A stretch of DNA of 64,000 bases, counting the filler, from Bonamia ostreae (Eukaryota), in the NCBI GenBank assembly GCA_040357525.1. It is 15 parts of 15 records of this genome, joined end to end, with 100 filler letters (N's around TTAATTAATTAA, not from the genome) between each part and the next. Parts side by side here need not be neighbours in the genome. Positions count along the whole stretch, not along the records: positions 30,444 to 34,662 come from JBDODL010000344.1; 14 more parts are not named here. One strand, given 5' to 3'. This document shows, piece after piece, positions 18,439 to 34,662 of the stretch. The notes below the pieces were generated by a model. It had not been told where the DNA came from and made no database searches. It was given only the letters and a program-made list of their open reading frames with translations. Position 1 is the first letter of the stretch; every line of letters starts with the position of its first letter. Made by a program: the position numbers and the translations under genes.

Positions 18439-18522
18439 GCTTCGATGGTCGAGTGGTCTAAGACGATCGACTCAAGTTCGATTCTCTTCAATGAGGCGTG
18501 GGTTCGAATCCCACTCGGAGCA
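18439..18522 (+). tRNA. tRNA-Leu(CAA)
   Basis: Acceptor GCTTCGA/TCGGAGC, D loop AGTGGTCTAA, anticodon arm ATCGA-CTCAAGT-TCGAT, long variable arm, GGTTCGAATCC; followed by a T7 Pol III terminator. Confidence 0.96.
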
Positions 18523-30443: not shown

Positions 30444-33084
30444 ATTTTCTTCTTGTTTGGGTATACTTAGCGTAACCTGTCATCGCTGAATCGTACTCTG
30501 TTTTAACTTCTTTTGTTGTGGATTTGTCAACAATATTTTCTATTGCTTCACTCATTGGATTTAAAATTATTTCTTTAAATTGTCCAAAAGCACCTGTCAT
30601 TGCTTGAGATTCCTTCAATGAATTTTGCTCATACATTCTTCCGGCTCTAGACAACATTGATCTAACCTTGAATAATCTGCTTCCTATAGAATCTTTATAT
30701 CCCGGTAAATTATTCGGTTTGTCAAGAGTAAGAATATCCTTAAGTTCTTCAACTACGAATTGCGCTTCTACTCCTAGATTATAGTCTGAACTCAATTCTT
30801 TCAACACTCTTTCATAATATAATGTTGGCTCTTGAGATACTGTCCCATCTGCCTTTTTTGCCCCTTTCTTTGGACGGCCTTTCTCATTAAGATTTTCTAT
30901 AATATTTCTCATATTAGAAAGTTCGCTTTCAATTCCTTCTGGGTTTCCAGAGGCGAATGTATCAATTGAAGTCTCTGCGTCTGCAAAAGGTTGACTGAAT
31001 CTTTCTCTCACACCTGACTTAACTTCTTGGGCAAAGTCCCATGCAGTATTCCCTGTTTCACCTTTGTCCCTAATCTTTGTAACATCAACCTCATTAAAGT
31101 CTATACCAACTCCATCGAAGAATGCATTATTGAAGGCTTGTATTTCTTTTGAAATATATTCATTAATAAATTGTCCATTAGTTCCAGGATCAAGGGCTAT
31201 ACCGCCAACTATATCAAGAATGGATGTACCAAGCGCTCTCATATTAAGATCTTCTGATTTCAGCATTCTAGCCAATAAGTTTGTGCCTCCTCTCTCTGCA
31301 ATTAGGGCATCAAGTTCACTAATAGGAAGCCCTTCACTGAATATACTATTTACAATAGCTGACATAATATTGTCTGCATTCCTAATAAATATTGCATCAT
31401 CAGTTGCTGAGATAGATAGATCTGAATTAATTATTGGTTGCTCTATTCCTTGACGGGCATCATCAACTAATTTTTGTGCTCTTTGATCCATAACATCAGC
31501 TATATCATTTTTATCTCTTGTCAGGGATTCCAATGTTCCATCTGAGGATAATTTTCTATTATATTTAGAACTGTTTTCAGACCCCTTCCCAATATTAGAA
31601 ATATTAACATCCTTTATTGTTCCGGATCCATTTGTACCTCTTTCTATATAGGCTCCCTCGAAAGATTCACCAGGAATATTTTTAACTGTAGTTTCTGAAA
31701 TAGTGTCCCCAGATATTTGTTCTGATGGAGTTCCTGTTCCTTCTGTTTTATTGAAAATGTCATTGAAAGCTTTTTCATTATTATATATTTCTTCCATGGC
31801 CTGTTCTGAGGCGATCATTCCTTCATCAATAGTTTTACTTGACTCTGATGGTTTAGCCTTATATCCAGTCTCTTCTACTGGGGCTCCTTCTTTATTTATA
31901 GAGAATTCTTTTTCGCCAACATTGAATCTTGTTTTCTTGGATCCTTCTCTAGGGAATTCAAGAGTACTAATATCAGTTGGTTTTGATCCAAATAGCATTT
32001 TTCTGCCAGTAGATCCTGTGTTCTCAGCTAGAGATGATTTATGGGCTACAAGCATACCTAAAGCTCCACCAAGACTCGGAGCAACATCCCTTCTATTTTG
32101 GGTAATATCTATATTATCGACTATCTTTTTTGTTGCATATCCAAATGCTCCACCAGTGGCATAAAGAGCAGAGGCAGTTAAGTATTTTTCAAATATTGTC
32201 GCAAATGGATTTACTTGATCGAAAGCTGATAGGGCTACAGCTAAACTTTGCCCTCCTTTTACGGCTTCCAAGGCCTTAAAAATAGAAGAACCAAAGGCAA
32301 ATGTTGATAGCTCACCTCCAAAATAAGCCCATGAATTCTGATCAACACCCATTTTATCCATGAAATATTTTGTAACTTCTAATCTTGGTTTATCGGAAGC
32401 GAAAGATATAATATCAGCCCCTAAATCAATTGCTGAAAGTAGGGCTCCAGCTCCACCTCCGGCAATATTCTTTACAAATTTACCGGCATCAATTCTACTT
32501 GAATAATCCAATAAAATTCTTTCTATGTCTTCATCAACAATCATTTTTTTATCTGAATGTCTTCTCTCTATATCATTAAATTTAGCAACATCTAATTCGC
32601 TAATACCCTTAGGGCTATCCATATATTTCATCTTAGCTGTCATCTTTGACAGAAGAGCAGAAACCTCTATGGATGCTGACTCAGTTACTGAGGCTTTATT
32701 TGCCATATCCAATAATTGAGCATACCTATCAATCTGTTGGAATAGACCTCTTTTACTGGCCTCTCCCATATATTTTCTAACTGTATATGTATTATAATTC
32801 TGAATAGTGTCTCTAATATATTTGGTATTTTCTTTTATTTTAGAACCACCAAAATAACCTTTGTCTAATTTCTGTACACTCATCCCAGTTAGGCTACTAA
32901 AGTTCTGTAGATGGTCTGTCGCTAAATTAAACTTCCCATCCAACATATCCCTTTCCGCTGATCTAAGATGTTCTGAAGCCATCCCATATATCTGTGGATT
33001 TATATATTGTCTAAGATCTTTATTTGAAGCAGTAAGTTCGTTAGAGCCAAAATTAGGTGTGTTAAAACTGTTATTATTTTCCAT
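30444..33084 (-). CDS. Large ORFan (>880 aa, 3'-truncated) on a prokaryotic/phage-like contig; possible virion/DNA-ejection or secreted protein
   Basis: Intronless; AGGAG Shine-Dalgarno at 33093-33097, 8 nt before ATG; Gly/Ala-rich hydrophobic block then long helical region. Confidence 0.75.
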
Positions 33085-33133
33085 TATAAATTCTCCTGTA
33101 ATACATTGGTCAATATAGCATTATTAGGACTAA

Positions 33134-33158
33134 TTTAATATAATTAAATTATATTAAA
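33134..33158. promoter_or_regulatory. 25-bp palindrome with opposed TATAAT boxes (candidate bidirectional promoter/operator)
   Basis: TTTAATATAATT-A-AATTATATTAAA, perfect 12-bp arms, in the middle of the 100-bp gap between divergent ORFs. Confidence 0.6.
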
Positions 33159-33184
33159 AGGAAATTTATTTTATAGGAATTTTT

Positions 33185-33466
33185 ATGGGTGGAATCTCTG
33201 CAATCGCGTCTTTATCAGATAAATCCGATTTATCACAACTTAATAATAGTAGACCAATACTGAATCAATCTAACCAGAATATTAATTCTTACAGTAATCA
33301 AACCAATAAAAACAATAATGTGATATCCCAATATTCTGAACAGGGATTATCTTACAATGATCAACCTAATAGGAATTATTCTGACAATCCAAAAAAATCA
33401 AATAGTTTACTAGATCAATTAAATCAATTAAATCAACTAAATAGCGGGAATCAAAATGGACAATAA
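33185..33466 (+). CDS. Asn/Gln/Ser-rich small ORFan (foreign contig)
   Basis: AGGA 6 nt before ATG; overlaps the next ORF by 11 nt. Confidence 0.6.
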   Translation: MGGISAIASLSDKSDLSQLNNSRPILNQSNQNINSYSNQTNKNNNVISQYSEQGLSYNDQPNRNYSDNPKKSNSLLDQLNQLNQLNSGNQNGQ

Positions 33467-33848
33467 TAATTTTTCAAGCAAGGAAATTCAGAATAGTTTG
33501 AATGAAGACCTCTCAAAAGAATCTACTCAAGCAGATATATCTAAAGTTTTACCTATGATACTTAGCGGTGTTTATAAGAGCTCTGAGGAACAATTTAATA
33601 AGCTTGGGCAACAAACAACCGTTAATGCATATGGCCTTGCATCTATTTCTAAACAAATGACTCAACTCTCACAAATTGTAAAACAATTAGCGGACAAAGC
33701 TGGAATCCAAGGGCAAGTAGAACAGCCAGAAGCCTCTGCTCCAGTTAGACCAAAACAACCAGCTCAACCTAAACAAGATGGAAATGAAAAACTAGCAGAA
33801 ATGTTTGCAGAATTAATGCAAAATAGAAATGGAAATGATCAACAATAA
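33456..33848 (+). CDS. Coiled-coil / Gln-Pro-rich ORFan (foreign contig)
   Basis: GGGA 6 nt before ATG; operon-like overlap with the upstream ORF. Confidence 0.7.
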   Translation: MDNNNFSSKEIQNSLNEDLSKESTQADISKVLPMILSGVYKSSEEQFNKLGQQTTVNAYGLASISKQMTQLSQIVKQLADKAGIQGQVEQPEASAPVRPKQPAQPKQDGNEKLAEMFAELMQNRNGNDQQ

Positions 33849-33859
33849 AAGGAGTAAAG

Positions 33860-34662
33860 ATGACTAATTTTACAATGCCCCTTAATGTTGAAGCGAGAAG
33901 ATCTACATTCGAACAGGTTTCTAAAGGAGCAGATAAATTTAACAGGACTATAGCGCCAATAGTTCAAGCCGGTCAAACTATGCTTGGTCTTGGTGGCCTT
34001 GGTTATAGTGGGTTGCAATCAGGCCTAGAATTAAGTAGGTCTATATTTGCCAATAGATCCCATAAAAGATTGGAATCAGAGGCGGATGAGGTGTATAGAG
34101 ACCCTTCATATTTAACAACAGGTTTGATGGATAGACTCAGAACAGATTTAAATACTGTTAGAGACTTTGTTGGATTATACGAAGGCAATAATACTATTAC
34201 TAGCCCAGGAAATATGTCTCAACTATCAACTGGGTATACTAATTTTTCTGAACTATTTGATCCTTCTAAGATCGATCAAAATATGAGATTAATAAACTCA
34301 AGAATTGCAAAACAAAGAGAGGAAGAAAAAGCCCAAGAAATTAGAAACATGATTGGGTCTGATACAACAGGAGCTCTTTCTGGAATTACTGAAGCCATAC
34401 AATCAGTAGCCCCAGAAAATATAAGTTTCTTATCTAGGGCAAGAGATGTTTTCAGAAGAATTGATCCAACTACAACTTCACAAAACTTCGTGCTAGCAAC
34501 CTATGCAGACAAATTATTTGACAATTATATGTCCAAGAAAAATAAAAATACTAAAGATGCAATAAGGGATTCTATAGATACAGTAAAAAGATTGACAAAA
34601 CTTATTAGAAGCGGTGGATCACCAGAAGAATTCAGAGCTCTTCAAGACATACAATATGATTT
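33860..34662 (+). CDS. ORFan with N-terminal Gly-rich hydrophobic segment (foreign contig, 3'-truncated)
   Basis: AAGGAG at 33849-33854 directly after the upstream stop, 5 nt before ATG; AGQTMLGLGGLGYSGL segment. Confidence 0.75.

Follow-up and report, generated by a model that had tools for sequence, protein, structure and literature searches.

A foreign, prokaryote-style scaffold in the Bonamia ostreae assembly probably derives from an undescribed phage and encodes a member of a rare family of large cysteine-free proteins

What is a scaffold of prokaryotic appearance doing in the assembly of a eukaryote, and what might the proteins that it encodes do? These questions are raised by the scaffold JBDODL010000344.1 of the Bonamia ostreae assembly GCA_040357525.1, which occupies positions 30444-34662 of the window, i.e. 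the whole stretch of 64,000 nucleotides that was analysed. The window consists of assembly scaffolds, about 4.2 kb in size, that are strung together with 14 spacers of the form N...TTAATTAATTAA...N, and 18 sequence pieces from it were compared. The scaffold in question bears four intron-free open reading frames (ORFs A to D; Table 1) in a divergent, operon-like arrangement. An earlier reading of the window, made from the sequence alone (henceforth the sequence-only reading), had taken it for a contig of ORFans from an uncharacterised AT-rich phage or prophage or from a bacterial symbiont. Our analysis shows that the scaffold is foreign, prokaryote-style DNA and almost certainly not part of the host genome. 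Its origin is probably a phage, and the largest of its genes, ORF A, codes for a protein that may, by analogy, be compared with those that phages eject into their hosts.

The foreign, prokaryote-style origin follows from the composition, codon usage, coding density, Shine-Dalgarno (SD) sites and ORF coupling of the scaffold. The observed/expected ratio of CpG is 0.39 in the scaffold, whereas the 17 other pieces of the window have values of 1.13-2.12; that of TpA is 0.84 as against 0.40-0.66. The longest stop-to-stop ORF reaches 892 amino acids here and at most 381 in the other pieces. About 97% of the scaffold is coding, with 111 nucleotides (nt) lying outside ORFs, namely a 100-nt intergenic region and an 11-nt gap. 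AGA accounts for 52 of the 64 arginine codons and CGN for two, the codons TCG and ACG are unused, both complete ORFs (B and C) terminate in TAA, and not a single cysteine occurs among the 1370 residues of ORFs A to D. Host ORFs taken for comparison (eight, with 2377 codons) contain 2.0% cysteine, and encode arginine by CGN in 67 and by AGA in 35 of 114 instances. The other pieces of the window encode eukaryotic domains, including calpain, HMG-box, LIM, SacI, WD40 and protein kinase domains. Thus, the contrast drawn by the sequence-only reading between an intron-free, densely coding, CG-poor contig with AGA-dominated arginine usage and an otherwise eukaryotic window is borne out, as is its description of the proteins as cysteine-free. 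A Mollicutes-type code is unlikely for the scaffold, because its ORFs contain no in-frame TGA and use TGG for both tryptophans. The host pieces for their part combine an unusually high CpG ratio and a low TpA ratio (the ranges given above) with a GC content of 26-40%, a signature distinctive enough to make compositional binning of foreign scaffolds in this assembly easy.

The organisation of the genes is likewise prokaryotic, with SD sites, coupled or overlapping ORFs and intron-free genes all present on the scaffold. When a canonical motif was sought 4-12 nt upstream of the ATG, a match was seen at three of the four starts (AGGAG for ORF A, AGGA for ORF B and AGGAG for ORF D); ORF C is preceded by GGGA, which is not canonical, so that the SD sites earlier assigned to all four starts are retained for three. 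The 127 ATGs of the scaffold include eight with such a match (6.3%), and the 1345 ATGs of the host pieces include 89 (6.6%); at this background three SD-preceded starts out of four would arise by chance with a probability of about 1e-3. The operon-style overlap at 33456-33466 and the 11-nt gap at 33849-33859 that had been pointed out in the first reading both agree with the ORF coordinates: translation of ORF C is coupled to that of ORF B by the 11-nt overlap, and ORF D starts 11 nt past the stop codon of ORF C. The intergenic region at 33085-33184 presumably holds the promoters of both arms. We infer this rather than observe it, since the sigma-70 scan gave no excess of promoter-like sites on the scaffold (nine observed versus 18 expected from shuffles); in its strict form the scan returned one weak match across the intergenic region (minus strand, 33102-33073, 9/12).

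Table 1. Features of the foreign scaffold (window positions) and regions of the ORF A protein (amino acids, aa)
Feature	Position	Strand	Remarks
Foreign scaffold	30444..34662		4219 bp; exactly one scaffold; cut within a gene at both ends
ORF A	30444..33084	-	ATG at 33084; at least 880 aa; 3' end absent at scaffold edge
SD site of ORF A (AGGAG)	33093..33097	-	8-nt gap to ATG of ORF A
Divergent intergenic region between ORFs A and B	33085..33184		100 nt; AT-rich
ORF B	33185..33466	+	93 aa; Asn/Gln/Ser-rich, low-complexity; AGGA at 33175-33178, 6-nt gap
ORF C	33456..33848	+	130 aa; Gln-rich, Cys-free; ATG overlaps end of ORF B by 11 nt
SD site of ORF D (AGGAG)	33850-33854	+	5-nt gap to start; begins 2 nt past stop of ORF C
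ORF D	33860..34662	+	at least 267 aa; 3' end absent at scaffold edge; Cys-free; Gly-rich N-proximal segment
ORF A, N-terminal domain	aa 1-190		conserved, helical
ORF A, Gly/Ala-rich helices	aa 200-350		weakly hydrophobic, with embedded Asp
ORF A, linker	aa 350-470		variable, low-complexity, Gly/Ser/Pro-rich
ORF A, beta unit	aa 472-520		small, conserved
ORF A, helical bundles			about 550 residues past the beta unit

None of the four ORFs has a meaningful match in Pfam, PHROG, NCBIfam or PADLOC. In word-index homology searches, which for ORF A and profile A1 scored only the approximately 8000 candidates that had most words in common with the query, ORF A, ORF D and profile A1 each matched only the window's own proteins. 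An exhaustive HMMER search of 1.84 billion representatives recovered nine proteins at E<=1e-3, one of them the window's own gene call and the other eight unnamed relatives of ORF A (E 2.6e-140 to 3.4e-14). Hence ORF A is not an orphan, and the earlier term ORFans applies to the four proteins in the sense that no family library recognises them. The seven full-length relatives span 1082-1169 amino acids, are collinear end to end and are free of cysteine, and it follows from their length that the ORF A of the window is short of about 220-290 C-terminal residues. Pairwise identity between the lineages of the family is 19-44%. The relatives come from Logan, ENA and NCBI assemblies and sit on 11 contigs of 1.9-39.5 kb, the two longest of which carry distant members from different sources (P0003 on a contig of 38,053 bp and P0008 on one of 39,456 bp). 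When the eight aligned family members were compared with Pfam and PHROGs, none gave a match below E 1e-3. Three JGI cluster members of 40-55 amino acids (P0012, P0014 and P0015) proved to be unrelated sequences, and the family therefore has no real JGI member. ORF A thus defines a family that is rare and deeply divergent.

More distant comparisons yielded weak associations. In a language-model search of the Atlas, the clusters nearest to ORF A were unnamed Uroviricota and bacterial hypothetical proteins (0.92), and the nearest named cluster was the P22 gp16 DNA transfer protein (0.90), both weak by the calibration of the tool; the best score obtained with ORF D was 0.81. Profile A1 retrieved from the PDB sequences only composition-driven alpha-synuclein rows at E>=0.06. 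A tblastn search of the PLSDB plasmids gave nothing. With ORF D, tblastn against the INPHARED phages gave two non-significant rows from Clostridioides phages, which at E 0.4-0.8 were judged to be chance.

Within the ORF A family most of the invariant columns fall before residue 260, in the N-terminal domain or the region next to it. Weak hydropathy peaks (1.1-1.8) at 0.18-0.32 of the length are a feature of all seven full-length relatives, and five of the seven have a second weak hydrophobic cluster at 0.93-0.98 of the length. The secondary structure predicted by AF2 for ORF A is almost entirely helical, at low pLDDT. The helical character and Gly/Ala-rich hydrophobic segments ascribed to these proteins at the outset are thus recognisable in ORF A, both in its nearly all-helical model and in its weakly hydrophobic residues 200-350. 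Several of the full-length relatives (P0004, P0007, P0008 and others) end in a short basic tail past a Gly-Tyr motif. This tail is reminiscent of the C-terminus of T7 gp16, whose positively charged residues are reported as essential in a review (PMC8954989); the ORF A of the window stops before that point.

The absence of cysteine is the feature of the family that most invites a functional comparison. ORF A and its seven full-length relatives have no cysteine in 8643 residues (P ~2e-38 at a background of 1%), and ORFs B, C and D have none in 490. As a control we took every mechanical ORF of at least 200 amino acids from three model phages, T7, P22 and positions 1-21100 of lambda. In T7, three of 16 such ORFs are free of cysteine, namely the scaffold protein gp9 and the internal core proteins gp15 and gp16. 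In P22 there are five of 26: the scaffold protein gp8, the needle gp26 and the ejection proteins gp7, gp20 and gp16. The lambda region has two of 15, of which one is the tape measure protein H and the other an overlapping frame without annotation. Nine of the ten cysteine-free ORFs therefore code for scaffold, needle, ejection or tape measure proteins, while the enzymes, portals, tail fibres and tailspikes of the same phages contain 0.5-2.3% cysteine. Thus, in T7, P22 and lambda, a large cysteine-free protein is nearly always one that resides in the lumen of the capsid or tail and exits via the portal or tail channel. A term search of the above review alone (PMC8954989) returned no mention of cysteine.

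Among these proteins the closest parallels to ORF A are those of gp16 in T7 and P22. According to that review, gp16-like proteins are 609-1337 amino acids long, largely alpha-helical and endowed with two putative membrane regions, of which one is C-terminal, and their divergence is so rapid that size and synteny are used to assign homologues (PMC8954989). The ORF A family, with about 1100 residues, lies inside this size class as the review gives it, is predicted to be almost all-helical, shares with the gp16 proteins of both phages the complete lack of cysteine and, with 19-44% pairwise identity, also diverges fast. In an identical hydropathy scan the weak peaks of T7 gp16 fall at 0.25-0.30 and 0.87-0.96 of the length, a pattern much like that of the ORF A family. 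By these predictions the family is large and mainly helical and has two putative membrane regions, the C-terminal one in five of the seven full-length relatives, although the copy in the window lacks its C-terminus. Unlike T7 gp16, ORF A has no lytic transglycosylase domain, and neither an SLT nor a gp16 family emerged in the Pfam and PHROG scans. In particular, the Pfam scan of ORF A yielded no family at E<=1, and PF26808 (Phage_P22_gp16) is not listed for the eight members at E<=0.1. ORF A further carries the 100-residue Gly/Ser/Pro-rich linker and the beta unit at residues 472-520, which may set it apart from gp16 proteins.

Tape measure proteins offer a second parallel. Lambda gpH is, like ORF A, long, helical and without cysteine (none in 853 amino acids), and it too has two hydrophobic clusters, at 0.14 and 0.81-0.83 of its length. 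However, ORF A matches no tape measure family of Pfam or PHROG; the best tail-related PHROG row was a 'minor tail protein' found with one of the eight members at E 0.025. Moreover, the low-confidence prediction for ORF A is of many short helices in bundles with a disordered linker, and not of one long helix. Outside phages, the translocators of type III secretion systems and other bacterial proteins that are secreted unfolded are also cysteine-poor and helical, insert into membranes by weakly hydrophobic hairpins and have small acidic proteins as neighbours, and in these respects ORF A may resemble them. They differ in that the ORF A family is about twice the usual length of a translocator, that no secretion-system or translocator family was matched and that pattern scans found no relative among the GTDB species genomes. 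By analogy with the phage proteins, we tentatively place ORF A in the functional class of gp16 and tape measure proteins, as a protein that could plausibly be translocated via the tail channel and insert into a membrane. Because tests of membership by sequence, fold and synteny fail, this is a proposal that ORF A works like these proteins and not that it is one of them. The virion core or DNA-ejection role guessed at in the sequence-only reading accordingly stands as an analogy, carried by the cysteine control and the T7 gp16-like hydropathy; the searches for sequence or fold homology found none.

The reading that we favour, and hold to be rather likely, is that the scaffold comes from a phage or prophage, undescribed and probably about 38-40 kb in size, of which a fragment was co-assembled with the eukaryote. 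A phage or prophage is preferred because the ORFs match no library family, pattern scans found no relative in GTDB (185,579 species genomes), the contigs of the relatives do not exceed 39.5 kb, and the Atlas neighbours include Uroviricota. The GTDB scan, like those of IMG/VR and the JGI metagenomes, used short peptide patterns, with which absence is not proof. The alternative of phage, prophage or symbiont put forward earlier is in this way narrowed indirectly towards phage or prophage, in the face of the missing hallmark phage genes.

Several results weigh against this reading. No terminase, portal or capsid gene is found on the 4.2-kb scaffold. Pattern scans of IMG/VR and of the JGI metagenomes did not find the ORF A family, and among the INPHARED phages nothing was retrieved by blastn with the scaffold or by tblastn with ORF A, its relative P0008 or ORF C. 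With profile A2 the scores were close to 0 bits for T7 gp14 and gp15, P22 gp7, gp20 and gp16 and lambda H, P22 gp16 reaching 0.9 bits, and T7 gp16 went unreported even at E<=100. Structural comparison fared no better: the mean pLDDT of the AF2 model was 36.8 from the single sequence, which is useless, and a poor 52.3 with 12 sequences. With the ORF A model Foldseek found nothing in the PDB at E<=1e-3, the best BFVD row was non-significant (E 0.012, TM 0.07), and the best VIA-wide row (Z 8.4) represents generic bundles of helices and falls short of the caution level that the tool sets for helical proteins. At the top of the BFVD list stood proteins of the tape measure, 'large polyvalent' and internal virion kinds, none of them significant. 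Among the searches that the sequence-only reading had proposed, that of PHROG gave no family match, Foldseek gave no significant fold match for ORF A, and short patterns found no relative in IMG/VR. The C-terminal hydrophobic peak is absent in two of the seven full-length relatives. Synteny is also at odds with a gene of the gp16 or tape measure kind: ORF A comes first after a divergent region, whereas gp16-like genes follow the gp14 and gp15 genes on the same strand. Tape measure genes follow those of the tail chaperones, and ORF A has no such genes upstream, since the region upstream of it is divergent. Finally, the cysteine control covers only three model phages, and secreted proteins, type III secretion substrates among them, also typically lack cysteine.

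The sequencing runs bear on how the scaffold is associated with the eukaryote. All listed runs belong to one study, and the recurrence described here is recurrence within that study. In run X1, from organism A, a fraction of 0.74 of the sampled words was present at a depth of 1.5-10 per bin, and one X1 contig reaches 233 nt past the left end of the scaffold. A second sample of organism A yielded a piece of 466 nt without differences. The scaffold sequence was not found in run X3, from another organism of the same study, and no RNA run is listed as containing it. These data cannot tell an associate of the organism from an integrated copy. The X1 contigs leave positions 31290-31571 uncovered; in one of them a stretch of 250 nt that is unrelated to the scaffold immediately precedes 31590, and a further contig has a 24-nt loose end before 33414. 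This pattern could reflect an artefact of assembly at low depth, a junction or a variant form of the element.

A different source of prokaryote-style DNA would be the chromosome or a plasmid of an uncultured AT-rich bacterium, be it a symbiont, prey or a contaminant, with ORF A as a secreted effector or translocator (e.g. a type III or IV substrate) and ORFs B to D as its chaperones or co-effectors. The prokaryote-type signals are as expected for this explanation, the lack of cysteine and the weak hydrophobic segments would suit a secreted translocator too, bacterial DNA is far commoner than phage DNA as a contaminant of eukaryotic assemblies, and the identical 466 nt in the second sample are what a stable associate would leave. 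Nevertheless, a protein of about 1100 amino acids and three neighbours, all without a Pfam or NCBIfam domain, would be unusual for a chromosome. Pattern scans of the GTDB species genomes and tblastn against the PLSDB plasmids gave no relative, the 11 contigs with relatives are all at or below 39.5 kb, and no translocator, effector or secretion family was matched. We regard a bacterial chromosome or plasmid as unlikely, though less so than the explanations that follow.

Two further explanations would tie the scaffold to the eukaryote itself. A virus that infects the eukaryote, for instance an AT-rich virophage, a polinton-like virus or a larger DNA virus, would have compact intron-free coding on both strands, an AT-rich genome with Asn/Gln-rich low-complexity proteins and possibly a size of 38-39 kb, and the sequence has been found only in sequencing of this organism. 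The SD-like sites would in this event be chance purine runs, which is hard to reconcile with their presence at three of four starts (chance ~1e-3), and coupled stops and starts are typical of operons. The scaffold shows none of the capsid, ATPase or protease domains of such a virus, the language-model neighbours are clusters of phages and not of eukaryotic viruses, and the CpG content and codon usage are opposite to those of the host, all of which makes this origin very improbable. Still more improbable is foreign DNA integrated in the host genome, through recent horizontal transfer or as an endogenised element. The low depth in X1 and the presence in two samples of the organism would agree with integration, as would the unrelated sequence adjoining 31590. 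That sequence, however, is a single loose end on one contig of low depth and may have arisen as an artefact of assembly, while the scaffold contains no host sequence, its composition is strongly non-host and its ORFs are all intact over 4.2 kb.

If the scaffold is indeed a phage fragment, a mechanism can be sketched. The source would be a free phage or a prophage of an AT-rich, CpG-poor and SD-using bacterium that was sequenced at low depth alongside the eukaryote, and the fragment would span the divergent junction of two gene arms, with ORF A opening the leftward arm and ORFs B, C and D forming a translationally coupled rightward operon. ORF A, with about 1100 amino acids when complete, would be packaged within the virion and expelled unfolded via the portal or tail channel at infection, in the mode of T7 gp16, P22 gp16 or a tape measure protein. 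It might then refold in the host envelope, where its two weakly hydrophobic regions would insert and help to form a conduit for DNA. ORFs B, C and D, which code for small cysteine-free proteins, may supply additional internal, ejected or scaffolding proteins. A bolder version holds that viruses of about 38-40 kb, with no link that can be detected to the phages and viruses catalogued so far, form a lineage tied to eukaryote-associated samples, for example as phages of an obligate symbiont of this eukaryote, and that the family of about 1100 residues is a new type of DNA-ejection or pilot protein that evolved independently. This we consider improbable.

The practical consequence for the assembly is that the scaffold at 30444-34662 should be flagged as non-host, which avoids its annotation as eukaryotic genes or its being mistaken for horizontal transfer. 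The ORF A family is absent from Pfam, PHROGs and the INPHARED records and, by pattern scans, from IMG/VR, with eight relatives among 1.84 billion representatives. Were it true that the contigs of about 39 kb are phage genomes, it would add a new solution to the poorly conserved machinery of genome delivery. Total absence of cysteine together with weak hydrophobicity in two regions may also serve as a cheap, sequence-only flag for tail-channel proteins, a prospect that so far draws on three phages. The case is one of viral dark matter and a flag for assembly clean-up, and not of a new kind of system.

Searches for RNA genes and repeats complete the picture of the window. On the scaffold itself Rfam gave no match, a tRNA search found none and a repeat search revealed no meaningful repeats. 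In the host pieces, Rfam recognised a tRNA at 18439-18522 on the plus strand (57.7 bits) and, at the borderline, a SNORD36-like C/D box snoRNA at 2913-2977 on the minus strand (30.2 bits, the gathering score being 30).

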